Made by a program: the position numbers and the translations under genes. Source: Abditibacteriaceae bacterium (GTDB taxonomy: Bacteria; Armatimonadota; Abditibacteriia; Abditibacteriales; Abditibacteriaceae). From it: DNA of 32,000 nt. The DNA lies in the NCBI GenBank assembly GCA_965277285.1, contig OZ255721.1, positions 3,662,737 through 3,694,736 on the forward strand, written 5' to 3'. The notes under the pieces are model-generated. The model saw nothing but the letters and a program-made list of their open reading frames with translations. It was not told the DNA's origin and made no database searches. This document shows, one piece after another, positions 11,952 through 21,120 of the stretch (position 1 is its first letter; each line of letters begins with the position of its first letter).

Positions 11952-14072
11952 CTAAAGAGTTGCCGGTACGACCTCAAAAGTCACTTGCGCTGTTGTCCAA
12001 TACGCCGGAGGCGCCAGGGCCGCGCCGCGTCGTCGTGTCGCCGAAGACAAGAGCATTTGCGACAGCGGATTGGAAGGTGCGCCGCCGCGCGATGAACTGC
12101 ACAAAATCTGGTTGTCGGCGCCGGGCACTTTTTGTACCCACAACGCGCTGAAATCTGCCGGTTGCTGCGTCGCAATGGCTTTCCAACGCTCGCGCCCATA
12201 CGGTTCGCTGGCGGTCGCAATCAAGCCTTTGATGACGTGCCATTGTCCATCCGCGGGAATGCGATTCAGTTCGCCAATCGGCTGGCGGTCGGGCGGCAAA
12301 ACCGGATTGATGCTGCCGTCGGGCGGCAAATCGAGAACAGTCACGTAAGCATCGACGGGCGACAAGTTGCGCAACTTCAACGTGTAACTGTCGCCTTCTT
12401 TGAAGACCAGATTGTTGCCGTCATTCGGTTTGATATCGCTGCGCGGCGTGGGATCGTTAGCGCCTTTAACGGGCACCAGTTGCATCTCGATTTGCAACAA
12501 AGATTGAGTGCTGGGCGAATTGCCCAGACGATTGAGAAATTGCCAGCGCCATTCGGCGTTGAGGGCTTTGCGCATTTCGTCGAACATTTTTTCGTCGTTG
12601 TTAATGCGCGCCACAATCTGATGATCGCTGCGCCGCTGCACTTCCAACTGATGTCCGACTTGAACAATTGAAACGTCGCAGTTCTGGCGCGTGGCGCTGT
12701 CGTCCATCACGCTCAGGCTTTCGTCTTCGTTGGCGCTCTTTTGCGCCGCTTTCAACTTTTGCACCCAATCGCCGCTGCCATCCAAAAATGCCTTGAGCCG
12801 ATTGTCGCCGTAATTGTGCGCGGTTTCAATGGCGCGCGCCGCCACCAAATCGGCGGACGGGACTTTCGAGTACTCGATGTCCAACTTCGCCTGCGAGGTG
12901 AAGTCATCAACGGATGTAATCGTCGCCGTGGCGAGAAGATTTTTGGCGTCGTTGACATCGCTTCCGGCGCGATACAGGTTGAACGTCGAGCCGACCGACG
13001 CGCCTTGAACGAAACCTGTCGGCAGCGTGACAAGTGTTCCATTTACCTGCGAGACGACCAAATATTTGCCTGCTGGGCGCGCTGTGCCGGAAAACAACAG
13101 TTTGTCGGCGTCACCTTCCATTTGCGGGTTTTGGTTGTCCACTGCGTTTTCGACTTGCGCGCTGACGGTCTCAAACAAGGCGCGATACGTCGTTTGCGGC
13201 GTGGCGTTTTCCAGGGCGCGCGTCAGATAAAGCGTCAAAGCGCCCATCGGCTGGTTTCTATCGTTGGCGGCTTCCTGCGCGATTTGGTCGCTGCGCGTCG
13301 CCGCGATAACGACGTAACCTTGCGCGACGGCCTCGTCTTTTCCCAACCAATCGCTGGCGTCCGCAACGTTGGCGCCGCGCGTTGGCTGTAGAGGTTTCGG
13401 GCCGTCAATTTTCGGGTTCCAGCCGCGCCCGCGTTTGGGCAAACCATTGCCGCCGCGCGTCGCCGTGCCGGAAAAACAACTGTCCAAAAACACCGTGATG
13501 TTGCCTTGAACCTGACCGTTTTTGTCCTGCATCTTCGCTTTCAAGCGGCGCAGCGAATCGCGGATGTCGTCATCCAAAACATCGGCTTTGAGGCCGCTTT
13601 GCGCGCTCTGATCGATGTAATCGAAGGGAATAATCGCCTGGTGCATTCCGCTCATTTTTCGATGTGTCGGGTCGGGCACTTCCTGGCCGTGACCGGAATA
13701 ATGAAAAACGATGATGTCGCCGGGTCGCGCCTGATCGATCAAGTGGTGTTGCCAGGCATCGAGAATGCCTTTTTTGGTCGCTTGCGCGTCTTCCAGCACC
13801 AGAATGTCTTTAGCGGCGAAGCCAAAGCGCGATTCGAGTACTCGTTTCATGGTGGCAATATCGGTCTGGCAATCGAGATTCCACCAATCTTTATCTTCGC
13901 CGCGCCCTCGGTCATAATGGCTGATGCCGACCAGCAGCGCCAGTTTGCGCGGCGTTTTTGTCGTCGCGGTCAGAGGTTTCGTGCTCGACGTTGGCGCGGC
14001 TTGAGCGACATGGCAAAAGTTCAAGGCGCACAAGACGCAAACGCTGATTTTGCTCCAAATGGTGCTTTTCAT
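11952..14072 (-). CDS. Exported caspase-family (peptidase C14) protease with C-terminal DUF4384-like domain
   Basis: The Sec signal is 'MKSTIWSKISVCVLCALNFCHVAQA/AP'. The caspase core is 'LALLVGISHYD...IIVFHYSGHGQ' (His138 in track numbering, codon 13689-13691) and 'VFLDSCFSG' (Cys209, codon 13476-13478). The C-terminal 'LVFKEGDSYTLKLRNLSPVDAYVTVLDLPPDGSINPVLPP' resembles DUF4384. The start is taken at Met11 (14070-14072) behind a GGAGAA RBS. Confidence 0.85.
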   Translation of the reverse strand: MKSTIWSKISVCVLCALNFCHVAQAAPTSSTKPLTATTKTPRKLALLVGISHYDRGRGEDKDWWNLDCQTDIATMKRVLESRFGFAAKDILVLEDAQATKKGILDAWQHHLIDQARPGDIIVFHYSGHGQEVPDPTHRKMSGMHQAIIPFDYIDQSAQSGLKADVLDDDIRDSLRRLKAKMQDKNGQVQGNITVFLDSCFSGTATRGGNGLPKRGRGWNPKIDGPKPLQPTRGANVADASDWLGKDEAVAQGYVVIAATRSDQIAQEAANDRNQPMGALTLYLTRALENATPQTTYRALFETVSAQVENAVDNQNPQMEGDADKLLFSGTARPAGKYLVVSQVNGTLVTLPTGFVQGASVGSTFNLYRAGSDVNDAKNLLATATITSVDDFTSQAKLDIEYSKVPSADLVAARAIETAHNYGDNRLKAFLDGSGDWVQKLKAAQKSANEDESLSVMDDSATRQNCDVSIVQVGHQLEVQRRSDHQIVARINNDEKMFDEMRKALNAEWRWQFLNRLGNSPSTQSLLQIEMQLVPVKGANDPTPRSDIKPNDGNNLVFKEGDSYTLKLRNLSPVDAYVTVLDLPPDGSINPVLPPDRQPIGELNRIPADGQWHVIKGLIATASEPYGRERWKAIATQQPADFSALWVQKVPGADNQILCSSSRGGAPSNPLSQMLLSSATRRRGAALAPPAYWTTAQVTFEVVPATL

Positions 14073-14248
14073 GGTGAAGAAAGTTCTCCGAACAGACGAC
14101 ATCTTTCGCGCTCATTGTGACATATTTTGCGAGAAATGAGAAAACCGCGCTGTCGCACACTTGACAGCCGCCTTGTCGATTTTGCGATATGTCGCGCTAA
14201 GGTTGTTTATATTCACTGAGTTATAAAGAAAGTGTGGAAGGCAAGTCC

Positions 14249-14369: not shown

Positions 14370-17300
14370 CTATAACGTGTTTTGCGTCAATAATTGCGCG
14401 ATGCGCGCGGCTTCTTTGTCTTGTGCAGGCGACAAAAGTTTTTTATCGCGGAAGGCTTTGAAATCGTCCAGTGCGGTTTGCGCGAAGGTTTTTCCGGCGC
14501 TGATTTGGACGCGACGGTTTTCCAGATAAAGCACTTCGGCTTTGTCGTTTTGCCCCGACAGCAAATACGCGTGCGCCAGATTGACCTTGATCCAGCGTTG
14601 CGATGCGTCGGTTTGCAGGCCGCGCGAAGCCGAAACAACCGCGTCTTGCGGACGATGCGCCAGCAATTGCGCCCACGCCAAAGCACCATAAACTTGCGCT
14701 AAATATTGCGTGTTCACCGTTCGATCACGCTCGTTGGCGGCGCTGCGCACCAGCTCGGCGATGGTCGTCACTCCTTGTTGATACGACGCAATCGCGCGCG
14801 CATAATCGTTCTGCGCGACGTAAACATCCGCCATTTTGTTGAAGATGACAGCTAAATCGCGGCGCGCCTGCGAACTGAAAGGCGACAAATCGGTCAGGAT
14901 TTTGGCGGCTCGTGCGTCGAAATCCAGCGCTTCCTTCGCTTTGTTTTGCGCCAGTCGCAAGTCGCCCATGTTTTTCCACGCAATCGCCAGATCGCGCTGC
15001 GCTTCGGGCGTCGGATTTTGGTGCAGCAAGCGCACGCGCAAATCGAGGCTTTTCCCCAGCGCGTTCTGAGCGTCGCCGATTTTGCCGCCCAGCAACTGCA
15101 ACACGCCGATTTTTTCCAAACTCACCGCCAGGTCGCGCTGCGATTGAGTACTCGATAGAGCGTTTCCGTTCGAGGCCAGCGTTTCGCGGATGGCCAGACT
15201 TTTCTGGTACGAATCCAAGGCTTGCGCGGCCTGGTTGCCCAGAAATTGTGCGTCGCCGATTTTTTCGTAACTCACCGAAAGGCCGCGCTGCGCTTCGCGG
15301 TCGTCGCCATTGCGCGACAATTGAAGCCCGATTTGCAAACTCTTCTGGTAAGCATTGAGCGCACCCGCCGCATCGTTGGTTTCCACTAACAAATCGCCCA
15401 TTTTTTCGTAACTCGCCGCCAGATCGTTTTGCGCTTGGATGCTTGGTCGTTGTTGCGCCAGAGTTTGAAAAATGGCGAAACTTTTGTTGAATTGCTGCAA
15501 GGCCTGGGCGTCGTTGCCCAGCACGACGGCGGTCGAACCGCTGCGCTCGAAGTTGAGCGCCTTTTCGCGTTGCGCTTCGGGCGTGTCGGGGTTCAAGCGC
15601 AAAATTTTGTCGACGATCTGGTCGTTGGTGTCCTGAATCGTTTTCAGAACGGGCAAGCTGCCCGGCACATCTTTCAATTGATCGGGAATCGTATTCGTCC
15701 AAATGTTGATCGCTTGTAGCGCCAGATTTTTCTGCTTTTCGGCGCGCTGCCATTGCCCGAACGAGAACACGCCGAAACCTGTCACCAAAACGAAAAAACC
15801 TGCCGCCACTGATGAAATTGTAACCCGTCGAATGCGACGCGCGCGGCTTTGTTTGCGATGCGAAGATTCGATGTATTCGACCAGGTTTGCGTCGAGATCG
15901 TCGCGGCGCTTGAGCAAAATATCTTCGGCTTCGGCCAGAGGTTTTCCTGGCGGCAGCAATAAATCGGGGTTCTGGTTTTCGCTTTTCCAGCGCGCGGCGG
16001 ATTGTGCCACGCGGTCGCGGGCGCGCAGGAAATCGCGGTTTTCCTCGAGCCAGTTTTGCACGCGCGGCCAGCGTCGCAGCAGCGCTTCGTGTGCCACACC
16101 AACCACAGCGCGCCCATCATCCGCGCAATCCGTGACCAAAAGCCGCGCGGCGACAAACGCTTCCACCAGAGCGCGGCGCGGCGGCGTATCGCACAAGGTT
16201 TCCAGAGGCACGCGCTGTCCCGTCATTCCTGCCGCGTCGCTCTGCTTTCGAGTACTCGAATCGTTCACCGTCACCAGGCAACGCAACACCGATGGCAAGG
16301 CGTTGCGCGCGTCTTCATCCAACTGCGAAAAAACGTCTTCCGCGCGCCGCGCCAGAGCGCCTTCCGGCCCGCCCAGTTCATCGTAAGCCGCAAAAGTGAG
16401 AATGTTATCGGGCGTGCGGCGTTGCCACAATTCATCGAGCGTGAATTCCAAAAGCGGCAAGGCTTCGGGATCGCGCCAGGCGGCTTCGTGCAGCCGTTCG
16501 TCCAATCGCTCGCCAGTTTTCGGGTCGCTTTCAAAACGCAGGCCAGCGGCGCGCGAAGGATTGCGAATCATCTGCCCGACTTCGGCGAAGGTCGGCGGCA
16601 GCAAGTCGTAACTTCCGCTTCCTTCTTTCAAAGCGACAAGTGTCGGAACTTCGGCACACCGCGCATAAAAATCGCTGCGCATCGTCGCCACGACCCAGAC
16701 GGCGCCGCTGCGTGCCAAAGCCGCAATCGCTTCGATGAAACTGCGCCGCGCGTTGTCGCCGATCTTTTCCAGCGTCCACAATTCCTCGAGCTGATCCAGA
16801 ACTAAGAAAAAGCGCGCTTCGGGCGGCGAATCCAAACCTTCGCGCTTGCCCGTATCTTCCGCAGCGCGCTTCAAGGCGGCGCGAATTGGTGCAACCGCGC
16901 GTTCGGGCGCCTGACGCAAAAGCGCCGCGAGTTCCCTTTCGTCCAAGCCGTCTTTGCGCAGTTCTGGCAAGGCGCTTTTGTCCAACAACGACGCGGCCAA
17001 ACCCGCAATCAGGTCGTTCGTTTCGCCACTTTCGAGTACTCGATTGGCGTCTGAAGAAATGGCATCGGCTGCGCGCAAAATGCTCCAGCGCCACAAACCG
17101 ATGTGTTCGATGACGCCCGGCTGCGTGATCGTCGGCAAAACTCCGGCGCGCACCAAAGACGATTTGCCGCTGCCGCTGCGTCCAAAAACCAGCGTGAAGG
17201 CGCAATTTTCGCTCGCGCGCCGCACTAAAATATCGCGGATTTCTCCGATAGCGTGCGTGCGTCCGAAGAAAACCGGCGCGTGTTCCGGCTCGAAAACCGC

Positions 17301-18029
17301 CAGGCCGCGAAACGGCGAACCTCTGTGCCACGAAATCGGCGCCGCGCTTTCCTCGCCCGTCATGTGGCGTGGCAAGCGTTCTTCCACCAGGCGCCGCAAG
17401 TGGTTTTCCAGCATTTCCTCGAACTGATCGGGACTGGAAAAACCATGAAACGCCGCTTTGAACGAAGCCTGCGGGTTGCCAAACCAATGATCGATAAACG
17501 CTTCGAGCGCCTTTTTCTGCGCCAATCGGTCGAGCAAAGCTTGCTCGTTGGACAAAGGCGTGAAGGCTTCGCTGGTTTTGCGATAAACCATCAGGTCGGG
17601 CGCGCCGCGTTCCCGGAAAGCGCGCGCCGCGTCTTCAAATTCCCATTCGGTGCCCGAAGAAAACAGCGAACCGTCTTCGCGGTGGAATTGCGACGGCAAG
17701 CGCGTGCCCAGGCGCGACCACAAGATGCAAATCACGATGTCGGTTTGCGACGGCGGAATGATTTGTTCTTGGAAATGGCCGGTCGCGCGCAACGGCTCGT
17801 GTTCCCATAAAATTGGCTCGAGCCGGATGCAACCCGCGAACTCGCCGTTGATGCGCTCCATCACGCGCGTGGCGATGAGTCTTTCCTGACCGACATCGCC
17901 GGGCGACGAAAGAAAGACGCGCAACGTCCGTTCAACAGCGCATTGCGGTGCCGAATCGAGTACTCGATTCGGCGCTTCGGGCGTTGAAGAGGCGATTTCA
18001 GGCTGAGTTTCGGGAGCGGAAATGGACAT
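14370..18029 (-). CDS. DUF4062 (TIR/deoxyribosyltransferase-like) + nSTAND-type P-loop NTPase + single TM helix + TPR-repeat protein (1219 aa)
   Basis: The N-terminus 'RVFLSSPGDVGQER...DIVICILWSRLGT...GTEWEFEDA' resembles DUF4062. 'SPFRGLAVFEPEHAPVFFGR', Walker A 'FGRSGSGKSSLVRAGVLP' (17157-17183) and Walker B 'FFLVLDQLEELW' are typical of nSTAND1-like NTPases. 'RARRIRRVTISSVAAGFFVLVTGFGVFSFGQW' is a predicted TM helix. Six to seven 42-aa TPR units of the form 'AQRDL[AS]VS[YL]EK[IM]GD...YQKSL' follow. Confidence 0.85.
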   Translation of the reverse strand: MSISAPETQPEIASSTPEAPNRVLDSAPQCAVERTLRVFLSSPGDVGQERLIATRVMERINGEFAGCIRLEPILWEHEPLRATGHFQEQIIPPSQTDIVICILWSRLGTRLPSQFHREDGSLFSSGTEWEFEDAARAFRERGAPDLMVYRKTSEAFTPLSNEQALLDRLAQKKALEAFIDHWFGNPQASFKAAFHGFSSPDQFEEMLENHLRRLVEERLPRHMTGEESAAPISWHRGSPFRGLAVFEPEHAPVFFGRTHAIGEIRDILVRRASENCAFTLVFGRSGSGKSSLVRAGVLPTITQPGVIEHIGLWRWSILRAADAISSDANRVLESGETNDLIAGLAASLLDKSALPELRKDGLDERELAALLRQAPERAVAPIRAALKRAAEDTGKREGLDSPPEARFFLVLDQLEELWTLEKIGDNARRSFIEAIAALARSGAVWVVATMRSDFYARCAEVPTLVALKEGSGSYDLLPPTFAEVGQMIRNPSRAAGLRFESDPKTGERLDERLHEAAWRDPEALPLLEFTLDELWQRRTPDNILTFAAYDELGGPEGALARRAEDVFSQLDEDARNALPSVLRCLVTVNDSSTRKQSDAAGMTGQRVPLETLCDTPPRRALVEAFVAARLLVTDCADDGRAVVGVAHEALLRRWPRVQNWLEENRDFLRARDRVAQSAARWKSENQNPDLLLPPGKPLAEAEDILLKRRDDLDANLVEYIESSHRKQSRARRIRRVTISSVAAGFFVLVTGFGVFSFGQWQRAEKQKNLALQAINIWTNTIPDQLKDVPGSLPVLKTIQDTNDQIVDKILRLNPDTPEAQREKALNFERSGSTAVVLGNDAQALQQFNKSFAIFQTLAQQRPSIQAQNDLAASYEKMGDLLVETNDAAGALNAYQKSLQIGLQLSRNGDDREAQRGLSVSYEKIGDAQFLGNQAAQALDSYQKSLAIRETLASNGNALSSTQSQRDLAVSLEKIGVLQLLGGKIGDAQNALGKSLDLRVRLLHQNPTPEAQRDLAIAWKNMGDLRLAQNKAKEALDFDARAAKILTDLSPFSSQARRDLAVIFNKMADVYVAQNDYARAIASYQQGVTTIAELVRSAANERDRTVNTQYLAQVYGALAWAQLLAHRPQDAVVSASRGLQTDASQRWIKVNLAHAYLLSGQNDKAEVLYLENRRVQISAGKTFAQTALDDFKAFRDKKLLSPAQDKEAARIAQLLTQNTL

Positions 18030-18061: not shown

Positions 18062-18142
18062 TCGTAGGGGCGTGGTTTCCCCGTCCTGTCGATGAAGGCA
18101 ATCGGGCAAGGCGATGGGGCGGGAAAACCCCGCCCCTACGAA
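18062..18142. repeat. Imperfect GTAGGGGCG...CGCCCCTAC hairpin element
   Basis: 'tcgtaggggcgtggtttccccg' pairs with 'cgggaaaaccccgcccctacga'. It lies between the RyR-gene stop and the STAND-gene start. Confidence 0.8.
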
Positions 18143-18205: not shown

Positions 18206-20101
18206 TCATAACCGGAAAACCTGAAAACCGGCGCGCGCCAGAAATTGCGGCAGTTGGCGCGCCGTTTGGCGGTTCATTTCCTGAACATTTGGCGGCAGCT
18301 GTTCCCACGGCAAAAGGTTGGGATTGGTTTTGCGTGCGGCATCGCGCGCGCCCAGCGTCCAGCCGCCGCTTTGCTGTTCTTGCAGCCAGCGCGCGTGTTC
18401 GCGTTGTGCCATGCGTTCGGTTTCCTCGGGCGTGAAAGCGAACGGTTTGGCTTCCCAATCGGCGATGGGCGCGATGTCGCAACCTTCCAAGCGCAATTGC
18501 GTGCCGATAAAATCGGCCTGGCGTCGGTTCTTTTCCTTGATCAATTCCGACAAATCGTCCCATTGCGCCAGCGCTGGATTGTTTTCGTCCGGCGCCAAAC
18601 GTTTTTGTTCGCGCAGATAATTGTCGTGCAGCGAGCGCGCCAGAACTTCGCTGGTGCCGCCCAACACCAGTTCGGGATGACACGAGTACTCGAGAAGCCC
18701 GAAGGCGCGCAAATCGGCGTTCGATGTTGGCGATGAGTCCACGTCGGTGTTTTTTTCGATGACCGAGTTGCTGATGAGCGCGGCGACGCCGTTGCTTTCT
18801 CCGGTGCGCATCAGGATGGGAACGGTCTTCTGCCAGCCGCGCGTTTCCAAACGGTGGCGCAATAAAAGCGCGGCGCCCAAACCTTGCGCTTCATCGCCTA
18901 CGCAAATGTAAATCGCGCTCAAGTGATGGTTTTTATCGTTATCAAAAAGATCGGCGCTTTGAAACGCCGTCGAACCGATTTGTAAATCGCGCGCCTCGAT
19001 TTCGCACGACGCGAACAATCCCGCGTGACGTTGACGCAACAACTCGCACACCGAAGACGCATCACGATCCACCAGAACGATCTTCAAGACTAGCGCCGTT
19101 GCATTGTTGAGGTTTTCTCGATGTTCCTGCCATTGTTGCACGGCGCGCAAAACGACGCGTTGCGCCAATCGTCCGGCGCCGATTACCAGCAAATACGGCG
19201 CTTGCATCGTTGGTTGAAGCGTCGTCGCGTCCGTTGGCGAAGGTTCCGGCGCTGCGAGCAAAGCACTTGTCCAGGGCGGTTGAGCGGAAAGCAGACCACG
19301 CGCGCCGATGTCGAAGACATCGAAAAGCTGCAAGCGAAAGGCGCTGTTGCCACTCACTTCCCAGCGCCGCAACAAGCGCCACAACTCGGAATCCATGATG
19401 TGCGCCGCGCAGGTGAGAACGTGACCGTTGTCATCCTTTGAGGCGGACATTATGTCGCGTGCATGGGCGATAACGGCGGCGTTGACGGCATCGTCGGAGA
19501 CCGCGAACAAGTATTTGGCGTGAGCGATGCGCGCCGCGCGAAGGGTTTCACGGCGCGTGACATCGCCGATCAAGGCGTAAATGCCGCTTTCTTTGCACGC
19601 CGCCAGCAAGTCGTGGTTCGGCTTGTTTTCGACAACGAGTACTCGATAACCTCTTTCGCGGAACGAGCGCGCCAGCAGCAAACCTTTCTGGCTTAGTCCA
19701 CAAATCACAACGTGATCACGCAAAGCGCGCGACTGCACTTCGCGCACGCGGTCGCGGAAGACGGCGCCAAAGGCTTCAAAGGCCGCGAAGCCAGTCACGA
19801 CCGGCATCAACCAGCGCGCGATTTCCAGCGGCCAAGGTAATGTGCCAATTGTGCTGCCACCGAAACTACGGAACTGAAAGGCCGAATAAAAAACGTCGAT
19901 CAGACGCCGCGACGGGAAAAAAAGATGCAGGCCAATGCAGCCCAGTGTGTAGCCGGTCAGCCATAATCCCAGCAAAACGAACCAGCGCCATTGCTGCCAC
20001 CAAGATGCCACGCGCTGCATCACTTCCTGTCGTCGCGCGGCAGAAGCGCCGCGATTTTTCAGGTTGATGCCACTATTTTGAAGTAAAAGGTTTTCGTTCA
20101 T
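18206..20101 (-). CDS. Membrane protein: 2 TM helices + tandem RCK/TrkA_N Rossmann domains + C-terminal RyR domains
   Basis: The TM segments are 'WRWFVLLGLWLTGYTLGCIGLHLFF' and 'WPLEIARWLMPVVTGFAAFEAFGAVF'. The Rossmann segments are 'HVVICGLSQKGLLLARSFRERGYRVLVVE' and 'YLLVIGAGRLAQRVV'. The C-terminal 'MAQREHARWLQEQQSGGWTLGARDAARKTNPNLLPWEQLPPNVQEMNRQTARQLPQFL' fits the RyR consensus (H..W......GW..G......K..P.L.PW..LP), and a second half-repeat 'LARSLHDNYLREQ...WDDLSELIKEKNRRQADFI' precedes it. The start is uncertain (20101, or 20209 as in the track). Confidence 0.8.
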   Translation of the reverse strand: MNENLLLQNSGINLKNRGASAARRQEVMQRVASWWQQWRWFVLLGLWLTGYTLGCIGLHLFFPSRRLIDVFYSAFQFRSFGGSTIGTLPWPLEIARWLMPVVTGFAAFEAFGAVFRDRVREVQSRALRDHVVICGLSQKGLLLARSFRERGYRVLVVENKPNHDLLAACKESGIYALIGDVTRRETLRAARIAHAKYLFAVSDDAVNAAVIAHARDIMSASKDDNGHVLTCAAHIMDSELWRLLRRWEVSGNSAFRLQLFDVFDIGARGLLSAQPPWTSALLAAPEPSPTDATTLQPTMQAPYLLVIGAGRLAQRVVLRAVQQWQEHRENLNNATALVLKIVLVDRDASSVCELLRQRHAGLFASCEIEARDLQIGSTAFQSADLFDNDKNHHLSAIYICVGDEAQGLGAALLLRHRLETRGWQKTVPILMRTGESNGVAALISNSVIEKNTDVDSSPTSNADLRAFGLLEYSCHPELVLGGTSEVLARSLHDNYLREQKRLAPDENNPALAQWDDLSELIKEKNRRQADFIGTQLRLEGCDIAPIADWEAKPFAFTPEETERMAQREHARWLQEQQSGGWTLGARDAARKTNPNLLPWEQLPPNVQEMNRQTARQLPQFLARAGFQVFRL

Positions 20102-20281
20102 TGAAGAAGAGAAAACGAAAACTTCCGCTTTCAATCCTGTTATTGTGATTAACCAACGGCGCGGCGGCAAGTCAGGAAGGAAACCTTGGCGTTGTCGGTC
20201 TGGTTGCATTCAGAGCGAAAACGGAAACCTGAGAGAAGGTTCAAAAGGTTTTGAACCTGGCTGAATGTAATAATAAATAGA

Positions 20282-20785
20282 ATGGAAAGAATTGTTGTGA
20301 TCGGCTCGGGAGGTTCAGGAAAATCCACCTTGGCCTGTCAGATCGCCAACATTCGTGGTATTAAGGTTGTGCATTTGGATGCATTCTATTGGCGGTCGGG
20401 TTGGGTCGCTACACCTGAAGACGAGTGGCAAAACATCGTTAAAGGTTTGGTCGTGGAAAATTAATGGGTGATGGATGGAAACTTTGGTGGAACTCGTCGA
20501 TTGCGTTTTGAGGCTTCGGATACCATTATTTTTCTTGACTTTACTCGCGCACTTTGTATCCGTCGTGTGTTATGGCGGCGTTGGCGCTACCGAAGCAAAA
20601 CAAGACCTGACATGGGCGCAGGATGTACGGAGAAGATTGATGGGGAATTCCTCAAGTGGATATGGAATTTCCCCAACAACAGCAGGCCAAAGATTATGAA
20701 GGAAATTGAAGACTATAAACAAGGTCGCAATGTCTTCATTTTGCGTCACCCCAATCAAGTGAAACGATTTATAAAGCACCTGTAA
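20282..20785 (+). pseudogene. Adenylate-kinase-like P-loop protein ('topology modulation protein' family) broken by one in-frame TAA
   Basis: 'MERIVVIGSGGSGKSTLA...WQNIVKGLVVEN*WVMDGNFGGTRRLRFEASDTIIFLD' reads through in one frame, and track ORFs 20282..20464 and 20468..20785 share that frame. The TAA is at 20462-20464. Local GC is about 43-48% on two 60-nt lines I counted, against 67% on one line at 16021 (bulk about 60% by eye). Confidence 0.7.
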
Positions 20786-21120
20786 AAGCACCCGCAAGCG
20801 TATACAAGCCATTTTGCTGACAAGGACACCAGAGCAGCAAAGTAACATATTCAACCTTCATGCTTTCGAGTACTCGAGTAGTCTTAAGTGGCACAACTTC
20901 AAGCGGCGGTAGTTTGCACATTGGTGCGGTCGCGGACACGATGTTGCGTGATGTCGTGACTTCGGATTTCAGTGCGCGATTGACGGCGGAAGATTGGAAT
21001 CGCATTCTCGATCCGGTTTGCACAATCGCCTCCGACGAACTATTTTAAAGAATTTTCGCAGGACGCAAGCTCGTATCGAGGCGTCGCGGCACGTCCCGAA
21101 CTGCTACAAAACATAGAGCG

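Follow-up and report, generated by a model that had tools for sequence, protein, structure and literature searches.

A bacterial channel-like protein with two RCK modules and a tandem RyR tail, probably a signal-gated membrane effector

GsuK, the multi-ligand-gated K+ channel of Geobacter sulfurreducens (PDB identifiers 4GX0-4GX5), combines a pore module of two transmembrane (TM) helices with two tandem RCK modules in one chain, and its crystals hold nicotinamide adenine dinucleotide (NAD) and ADP in the RCK modules. Here we describe a protein with the same modules, which we call RCK-RyR, encoded on the minus strand of a 32,000-nucleotide stretch of DNA from an Abditibacteriaceae bacterium of the Armatimonadota (GenBank assembly GCA_965277285.1, contig OZ255721.1, positions 3,662,737 to 3,694,736; hereafter, the window). 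It likewise conserves the dinucleotide motif, but is only ~14% identical to GsuK, lacks the TVGYG filter, carries an added tandem RyR tail and lies in a genomic context of conflict type and not of housekeeping type. MthK, the TrkA ring and Slo1 are more distant relatives of this chassis.

The tail resembles the R12 family (PF02026), which includes the animal RyR1-3, an RyR-like protein of Bacteroides thetaiotaomicron and the phage proteins RyDEP and RyR Tad. The tandem fold and the ligand-contacting His and aromatic residue of both repeats are shared, but in the window the domain forms the tail of a bacterial membrane protein, whereas the phage proteins are soluble and the animal RyRs are giant Ca2+-release channels, and repeat 1 of the window protein is without the GW.YG hairpin. 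A sequence-only reading of this DNA had held the function of bacterial RyR domains to be essentially unknown, a statement overtaken by two 2026 preprints in which phage RyR domains bind or hydrolyse 2'/3'-cyclic ADP-ribose (cADPR). RyDEP hydrolyses 2'/3'-cADPR and so defeats Thoeris by means of residues H75, W78, H100 and D117, of which H75 and D117 form the catalytic dyad and H100 lies on the phosphates, while most of the phage homologues assayed are binders and not enzymes (bioRxiv 10.64898/2026.05.28.727677). RyR Tad sequesters the same molecules, again defeating Thoeris (bioRxiv 10.64898/2026.06.04.730250). The phage RyR pocket is common to the R12 domain of RyR3, and single RyR domains dimerise (10.64898/2026.05.28.727677; 10.64898/2026.06.04.730250).

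A NAD-consuming TIR-type gene stands beside a membrane effector in Thoeris type X (ThsB TIR and ThsK, Yirmiya et al.) and type VII (TIR and SLATT), and a systematic survey verified the anti-phage activity of type X, in which a TIR protein is paired with an 'ion channel' effector and the signal is unknown (10.64898/2025.12.03.692087). The type X effector derives from a K+-channel pore, and relatives of the window gene adjoin TIR and SLOG genes; in contrast, the window itself has an NIR-like STAND and a caspase gene in place of the ThsB TIR, an adjacent TIR gene being found only in relatives. The window protein is also not homologous to the type X ThsK candidate, and we rejected an assignment of the window family as the type X effector: the candidate from Vibrio sp. 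JCM 19052, encoded between two ThsB genes, has 208 residues without RCK or RyR, matches Ion_trans_2 weakly and shows no similarity to the window protein (BLASTP E-value 0.11). The DUF4062 (NIR) domain is a TIR-like NADase that yields ADP-ribose (ADPR) and nicotinamide and occurs also in STAND proteins (10.64898/2026.09.04.749371; 10.64898/2026.05.01.722283). The gene next to RCK-RyR in the window has the same order of NIR-like domain, STAND NTPase and TPR as the NIR(DUF4062)-STAND-repeat proteins of the PsAvs2 type (10.64898/2026.09.04.749371), but the proteins described act alone by NAD depletion, with no channel-like or RyR partner in either DUF4062 paper. Host proteins containing RyR or TrkA go unmentioned in such loci in the RyDEP, RyR Tad, Thoeris and DUF4062 papers and in Kaur et al. 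2020 (eLife), the DUF4062 papers and Kaur et al. being silent on channels as well, and our literature search found no paper linking a bacterial RyR domain with TrkA.

Because the window gene and its relatives adjoin NAD-cleaving immune-type genes, the RCK-RyR protein probably acts in a bacterial defence or cell-death module, as a signal-gated membrane effector and not as a housekeeping channel. This company is non-random, all modules of the protein are under constraint, and its architecture and nucleotide fingerprints are apparent from the comparisons below.

Architecture and pore region of the RCK-RyR protein

The open frame proposed by the sequence-only reading is present on the minus strand (18206-20209, 667 codons). 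The ATG at 20101, giving a protein of 631 residues, is the likely start in view of the public gene call, the closest homologue and the near-neutral N-terminal residues: the call for the same genome (P0001) has 631 residues and is 100% identical to the window protein, the closest homologue likewise begins with MNE-, and the ratio of nonsynonymous to synonymous substitution rates (dN/dS) against the closest relative's contig (L083) is 0.82, almost neutral, over residues 1-35 of the 631-residue form and 0.27 overall, with purifying selection on the rest of the protein. The gene and its predicted features, numbered on the 631-residue form, are as follows.

18206..20101, minus: RCK-RyR gene, 631 residues (stop codon 18206-18208); the longest open reading frame (ORF) extends to 20209
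19919..19987, minus: TM1, residues 39-61; hydropathy peak at 49-53, within AlphaFold2 helix 11-61
19826..19918, minus: pore helix and degenerate filter loop, residues 62-92, ending DVFYSAFQFRSFGGSTIGTLPWP; alignment to TMTT[IV]GYGD, AlphaFold2, dN/dS 0.25
19757..19825, minus: TM2 or inner helix, residues 93-115; hydropathy peak at 106, within AlphaFold2 helix 90-125
19247..19720, minus: RCK1 (KTN) Rossmann module, residues 128-285, with G135-x-S-x-x-G140 and E158; Pfam TrkA_N, fold of GsuK, TrkA and MthK
18662..19204, minus: RCK2-like Rossmann module, residues 300-480, with G308-x-G310-x-x-A313 and D345; AlphaFold2 beta-alpha pattern at 301-479, tandem RCK alignment of GsuK and TrkA
18461..18661, minus: RyR repeat 1, residues 481-547, with H492-x-x-Y495 ... 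N508-P ... K-N525-R; Foldseek match to RyR3 Repeat12, conservation
18209..18430, minus: RyR repeat 2, residues 558-631, with H569-x-x-W572 ... K591-T-N593-P ... M-N610-R; Pfam RyR, PDB sequence matches

Pfam detects TrkA_N at 167-256 of the 667-residue ORF above its curated cut-off (E-value 2.9e-15) and RyR at 597-664 (E-value 4.7e-12; 46.4 bits against a cut-off of 27.4), the latter corresponding to repeat 2, for which sequence matches in the PDB comprise the B. thetaiotaomicron RyR-like protein and RyR1-3. The second Rossmann module, the first RyR repeat and Ion_trans_2 are not called by Pfam in the window protein, and the matches that NCBIfam returns, to Kch, KefC and TrkA, are weak and fall below threshold. 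A single-chain AlphaFold2 model built from an alignment of 78 family sequences is confident (pLDDT 87.7, pTM 0.81) and contains a helix at 11-61 that holds TM1, a short pore-type helix at 67-75, a loop at 81-89, the TM2 helix at 90-125, Rossmann modules at 131-282 and 301-479, and helical repeats at 483-545 and 558-630. Its best Foldseek matches in the PDB are GsuK chains with NAD or ADP (E-value 3e-11 over 543 aligned columns), followed by the TrkA ring, MthK and Slo1. The tail could be superimposed on human RyR3 Repeat12 with AMP-PCP (PDB identifier 9ls7) over ~190 columns that span both repeats, with a TM-score of 0.57 and a root-mean-square deviation of 3.5 Å, and among viral models (BFVD) the matches are phage 'RyR domain' proteins; the RyR profile and the two-repeat R12 fold are thus recovered by Pfam, Foldseek and BFVD. 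The two hydrophobic segments have their midpoints near residues 50 and 106, and a topology of TM1, pore helix with loop, and TM2 is indicated by hydropathy, by the AlphaFold2 helices and by the Foldseek matches to full-length GsuK and MthK.

These results bear out the domain reading made from the sequence alone. The TrkA_N and RyR profiles that it had proposed for searching both score above the curated Pfam cut-offs; its second RCK is supported by AlphaFold2, the Foldseek match to GsuK and the conservation of GxGxxG...D, in addition to TrkA_N in the first; its other RyR repeat is supported by AlphaFold2, the RyR3 Repeat12 match and a conserved H-x-x-Y, repeat 2 being found by Pfam; and the two helices that it had placed around a loop replacing the K+ filter agree with the hydropathy peaks, the alignment to GYGD-containing relatives and the missing Ion_trans_2 match. 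Judged from sequence and model, the protein has a pore-like 2TM module that lacks a K+ filter, followed by two RCK modules and a tandem RyR tail.

A database search returned ~30 full-length relatives, and a scan of one genome per species, using a 12-sequence alignment as query, returned at least 240. The loci discussed below are those of the best-scoring 80 of these 240, which are not a random sample, and motif and residue counts rest on the 78-sequence family alignment. Relatives occur patchily in Chloroflexota, Armatimonadota, Acidobacteriota, Bacteroidota, Gemmatimonadota, Actinomycetota, Planctomycetota and the archaeon Methanoperedens, and no full-length relative was found in the plasmid or phage collections searched. 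A contig titled as a Bifidobacterium breve metagenome-assembled genome (L072) has gene order and coordinates identical to those of Acidobacteriota/Vicinamibacterales loci (L055, L065) and is probably mis-binned.

TM1 and TM2 flank FYSAFQFRSFGGSTIGTLPWP, which aligns column for column with the WWxxVTMTT[IV]GYGD of nine relatives. The canonical filter T-x-T-T-[IV]-G-Y-G-D is present in these 9 of the 78 members, and those of them returned by the database search carry precomputed Pfam Ion_trans_2 matches. At the same columns the window protein has F-R-S-F-G-G-S-T, so that the K+ selectivity signature T-[VI]-G-[YF]-G-D is absent from the alignment, as it is from 69/78 members overall. A common motif, D.xY..LQLF.L.SG.V.gP..WELE.AR.LaP..AAYTA, together with a TM2 segment four residues shorter, unites 62 of the 69. 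In an unrooted maximum-likelihood tree from a quick search, the nine canonical-filter members form one clade (SH-aLRT 99), and the window protein and P0002 (67% identical) are its sister (SH-aLRT 89). Given homology to K+ channels along the entire chassis, the simplest reading, made on an unrooted tree, is an ancestral canonical filter that was probably lost more than once. In the window's small clade the filter loop, as aligned, lacks the glycines that a K+ filter needs.

Purifying selection nevertheless extends over the membrane part, with a dN/dS of 0.15-0.26 across TM1, P-loop and TM2 and of 0.25-0.26 in P-loop and TM2. In the main degenerate clade, the mean pairwise identity of P-loop and TM2 is 0.45-0.48, against 0.42-0.51 for the RCK and RyR modules; since P-loop and TM2 are as conserved there as the soluble domains, the membrane part is more than an anchor. 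This constraint, the fixed polar motif QLF.L.SG...WELE.AR of the main clade, which exceeds the needs of an anchor, and the full K+ filter retained by a sister clade whose TIR/SLOG loci are of a similar kind all argue against a non-conducting protein with a decayed pore, a membrane-anchored sensor or regulator that would bind NAD(H) or ADPR-type molecules to buffer or report them and might restrain or recruit the membrane-spanning STAND receptor or the caspase. We regard such a sensor as possible but rather doubtful. It would fit the dismantling of the filter loop, whose sequence is not the same in the two closest homologues, the absence of the catalytic Asp from both RyR repeats (see below) and the pure sponge activity of which phage RyR domains are capable, and the TM helix of the neighbouring STAND protein makes a membrane complex conceivable.

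Nucleotide-site residues of the Rossmann modules and RyR repeats

The RCK/KTN pattern of GxGxxG followed by an acidic residue after strand 2 is found in both Rossmann modules of the window protein (G135/S137/G140/E158 and G308/G310/A313/D345) and is conserved across the family. In module 1 the first position is Gly in 78/78 sequences, the second Gly or Ser in 78/78, the third Gly in 76/78 and the acidic residue Glu or Asp in 77/78; the corresponding counts in module 2 are 77/78 (Gly), 71/78 (Gly), 75/78 (Gly or Ala) and 71/78 (Asp).

The ligand positions of RyDEP (H75, W78, H100, D117) and RyR Tad (H129/W132, K147/H154, K170/D171) were mapped onto the family by alignment. The window pairs H492/Y495 and H569/W572 are equivalent to RyDEP H75/W78 and thus provide, as aligned, the ligand-contacting His and aromatic residue in each repeat. 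In repeat 1 all 78/78 members have both the His and an aromatic residue (Tyr itself at Y495 in 76/78), and in repeat 2 the counts are 76/78 and 77/78, respectively; H492 is among only eight invariant columns of the whole protein. Repeats 1 and 2 of the window protein have Asn at the equivalents of D117 (N525 and N610, respectively) and of H100 (N508 and N593); the H75/D117 dyad and the H100 of RyDEP are therefore not reproduced in it. Repeat 2 of human RyR3, as aligned in the PDB sequence match, has the same H/W/N/N pattern.

Asn at the H100 and D117 equivalents of both repeats makes RyDEP-type glycosidase chemistry unlikely and binding the expected activity, and we expect both RyR repeats of the window protein to be ligand binders and not hydrolases. 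A tandem that degrades cADPR-type signals and switches signalling off, as RyDEP does, was rejected for the window protein owing to the Asn at the catalytic Asp position in both repeats; although RyDEP proves that the fold can be catalytic, most of its phage homologues assayed are binders, and we consider this reading highly improbable. Across the family, repeat 2 has Asp at the D117-equivalent in 37/78 members and His at the H100-equivalent in 19, and some family members might hydrolyse a signal rather than merely bind it.

The only other RyR gene of the window genome lies ~2.2 Mb away (L081 1492-1779, minus strand; G000:C1:1452199-1452471) and adjoins a 324-residue ORF. It encodes a stand-alone domain of 95 residues (118 bits) with all four RyDEP positions (H, W, H, D), which could be a host-side binder or hydrolase of cADPR.

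Gene neighbourhoods in the window and across the family

The STAND and caspase genes that the sequence-only reading had placed next to RCK-RyR both lie downstream on the same strand, as supported by Pfam nSTAND1 and Peptidase_C14 matches. The predicted features of this region are:

14370..18029, minus: DUF4062(NIR)-like domain, nSTAND1 NTPase, TM helix and TPR, 1219 residues; Pfam nSTAND1 E-value 7.5e-93, and TPR
11952..14102, minus: caspase-family protease (Peptidase_C14) with a DUF4384-like tail; Pfam E-value 1.2e-21, PADLOC caspase E-value 4e-19
18062..18142, minus: imperfect hairpin of 81 nt, CGUAGGGGCG...CGCCCCUACG; RNA fold -62.4 kcal/mol, z -4.3, no U-tract after it
18179-18151, minus: promoter-like site, match 10/12, in the spacer between RCK-RyR and STAND genes

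The STAND protein also matches PADLOC PDC-S60 (E-value 6e-9), and a BLASTP comparison with a bona fide DUF4062 domain gave no significant match. On the closest relative's contig (L083) the same trio occurs in the same order, with identities of 67% for RCK-RyR, 80.5% for STAND and 69% for the caspase, whereas the upstream flank is unrelated, consisting of rpsF-ssb-rpsR instead of the window's genes. The trio is thus kept behind a different flank, which indicates that RCK-RyR, STAND and caspase travel as a unit and agrees with the link to the STAND/caspase pair that had been proposed from the sequence. True orthologues of the STAND and caspase genes were found in L083 only, among it and the 80 relatives' loci; tblastn of the two against the 80 loci gave one TPR match and nothing else, which suggests that the partners outside the window's small clade (TIR, NIR, STAND, CHAT) are analogous by domain and not orthologous. 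On the other side of RCK-RyR lies a divergent P-loop kinase-like gene (MERIVVIGSGGSGKST..., 20282-20788, plus strand) with an in-frame TAA at codon 61, past which the frame resumes with the conserved WVMDGNFGGT..., pointing to a nonsense pseudogene or a sequencing error.

For the family, ORFs were called crudely in the 80 loci and 81 same-strand adjacent ORFs were scanned with Pfam; hidden Markov models of TIR and DUF4062 were in addition built within our own data set from neighbour matches. The commonest families among the 81 ORFs are TIR_2 (13), TIR (12), AAA_16 (10), NACHT (5), DUF4062 (4) and nSTAND1 (4), and no ion-transport family is among the 25 commonest, nor were ion-homeostasis operons seen in the 80 loci. 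This is the neighbourhood survey that the sequence-only reading had called for, and neither of the outcomes that it had named as speaking against it, missing domain matches and ion-homeostasis operons, was encountered. A TIR neighbour is present in 32/80 loci (23/50 of those of at least 12 kb), a DUF4062 neighbour in 10/80 (9/50), either of the two in 38/80 (29/50), and a TIR, DUF4062, SLOG-like or further RyR protein in 52/80 (38/50). As a background control, TIR_2 was searched in five whole genomes, four of which have TIR at the locus; in these four, 6 of the 11 genome-wide TIR_2 matches fall inside the 21-kb locus, and in a 3.0-Mb Chloroflexota genome all three TIR_2 genes do so (L015, G001:C1:648227-670002). 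TIR, DUF4062(NIR)-STAND, SLOG and RyR-tailed neighbours are thus far commoner than expected by chance.

These neighbourhoods also bear on whether the protein is an ordinary cation channel under RCK control, serving in ion homeostasis or in metabolic sensing, whose position near the STAND and caspase genes is a coincidence. Such a channel would account for the best structural match being the housekeeping-type GsuK, for the weak NCBIfam matches to Kch, KefC and TrkA and the label 'voltage-gated potassium channel Kch' that some sources give to relatives, and for the 12 of 50 longer loci that have no marker neighbour. It is at odds with the dominance of TIR, STAND and NACHT over ion transport among the neighbours, the concentration of the genomes' TIR genes in RCK-RyR loci, the movement of the trio as a unit between different flanks, and a patchy distribution over many phyla and one archaeon, and we judge it unlikely.

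Individual loci show a variety of partners. L010 mirrors the order of the window, with RCK-RyR, a gap of 19 bp and then DUF4062-nSTAND1/NACHT-TPR, and a bona fide DUF4062-STAND gene abuts RCK-RyR in L010, L002, L008 and other loci. Further partner types are TIR-CHAT-AAA_16, TIR-STAND-TPR, TIR-WD40 and MshEN-TIR. A SLOG-like protein is encoded directly next to RCK-RyR in 19 loci (for example, L016 629-1303, L071 7208-7789 and L009 10943-12862), being either small or the N-terminus of a membrane protein of 630-720 residues, with the motifs GVTGHR, LAEGADRL and GGTAEIV; the long forms have C-terminal TM helices and a weak DUF4231 match. It has no match in Pfam, the PDB profile search or PADLOC, and its SLOG identity comes from an AlphaFold2 model (pLDDT 87) that matches YpsA (E-value 1e-6), the SLOG domain of ThsA with 3'cADPR (E-value 9e-4), LOG and TRPM2/4. 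Members with a canonical filter occur in the same type of locus, as in L009, where the order is TIR, small RyR, K+ channel-RCK-RyR and SLOG-TM with gaps of 43-123 bp. To judge from their domains, the loci bring together enzymes that consume NAD (TIR, NIR) and several proteins in which an ADPR-type sensor fold (RyR, SLOG) is joined to one of various output modules. Separately, a ClpB-like double-AAA protein adjoins RCK-RyR in 7 loci (for example, L014 7295-9475, L017 11555-13744, L027 1786-3984 and L041 6402-8483) and matches PADLOC DolB and PDC-M37B with E-values of 1e-33 to 1e-35.

A second, unrelated protein that ends in an RyR tandem is encoded in 18 loci, usually an AAA/nSTAND5-like ATPase of ~860 residues (L002 2222-4936, L014 10227-12809, L045 11852-14443 and L071 4550-7183), and in one locus a RelA_SpoT-TPR protein (L031 11442-14330); small stand-alone RyR proteins are likewise present in relatives' loci. 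Several RyR-tandem proteins in one locus, channel-like, AAA ATPase, RelA_SpoT and small stand-alone, would be in keeping with the tandem being a homotypic adaptor which, like Death-fold or effector-associated domains, pairs RyR tails and has no ligand pocket, as would the dimerisation of single RyR domains. This is improbable, given that the tandem already forms an intramolecular pseudo-dimer as in RyR3 Repeat12, that conservation is highest at the ligand-contacting His and aromatic residue rather than on a surface, and that the window genome has no second RyR-tailed partner nearby.

Proposed mechanism and meaning for the family

We assign a probability of roughly 50% to the RCK-RyR protein of the window being a nucleotide-gated, tetrameric GsuK-like module that depolarises the cell as a non-selective leak within a NAD-based conflict module. 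The tetramer would assemble in the inner membrane and read the state of the NAD pool through four sites in each subunit, two Rossmann sites of dinucleotide type and two RyR pockets with a His and an aromatic residue. A TIR-like NADase module would be supplied by the NIR-like STAND NTPase encoded next door, in place of which relatives have a TIR protein. Once this NADase was triggered, NAD+ would fall and ADPR or an ADPR-derived signal would rise, and the RCK and R12 parts would respond to the loss of NAD+, to ADPR-type products, or to both. Ligand binding to RyR and RCK would alter the membrane module and let cations leak, presumably with poor selectivity given the degenerate filter, and the leak would collapse the membrane potential and lead to arrest or death of the cell. 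The window protein would thereby be the membrane effector, or a co-effector beside the caspase, of a conflict or defence cassette.

Several observations weigh against this mechanism. The filter loop varies within the window's two-member clade (RSFGGSTIG versus HSFNNSVFG), and in the closest homologue the stretch equivalent to the filter is free of glycine, which fits poorly with a defined selectivity filter. The N-terminal domain of the STAND protein scores 19.4-20.7 bits against DUF4062 over the full length of the model, below the cut-off of 24.7, and the NIR-STAND proteins described are self-contained NAD-depleting effectors that need no second effector (10.64898/2026.09.04.749371). The window contains no TIR gene, both TIR_2 matches of its genome lying elsewhere, the lack of any marker neighbour in 12 of the 50 longer loci counts here too, and PADLOC has no model that matches the RCK-RyR protein. 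Finally, the 176 bp that separate RCK-RyR from the STAND gene hold both the long hairpin and the promoter-like site; co-transcription is uncertain because of these elements, and RCK-RyR may be transcribed separately from the STAND gene.

Compared with its TIR-type relatives, the window copy has an NIR-like STAND and a caspase in place of TIR and no SLOG, as its gene content indicates, and belongs to a small clade beside canonical K+ channels. For the family as a whole, we tentatively suggest, as a possibility well short of likely, that it is a bacterial ion channel gated via its R12 domain by NAD-derived signals (ADPR or cADPR isomers) from TIR or NIR enzymes. If so, the K+-channel chassis with its RCK ring would constitute a new class of signal-gated effector, and RyR repeats, hitherto seen as phage counter-defence sponges and enzymes only, would be host-side receptors for NAD-derived immune signals. 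For the window variant, the ADPR output of an NIR-type STAND would be more than a by-product of NAD depletion and would act on a membrane effector as its second messenger. In annotation, names that denote Kch- or TrkA-like K+ transporters are unsuitable for RCK-RyR genes.

The two Ca2+ channels that have been tied to cADPR and ADPR are the animal RyR and TRPM2, and the control of animal RyR channels by cADPR has long been disputed. Their nucleotide-binding domains, R12 of RyR and SLOG of TRPM2, lie side by side in bacterial TIR loci, each on membrane modules. If the suggestion above is true, the cADPR control of animal RyR channels would have its prokaryotic counterpart, and possibly its origin, in the R12-gated family, in parallel to the link between SLOG and TRPM2, and a small, expressible bacterial R12 channel would make a direct action of cADPR on the R12 domain of RyR testable.

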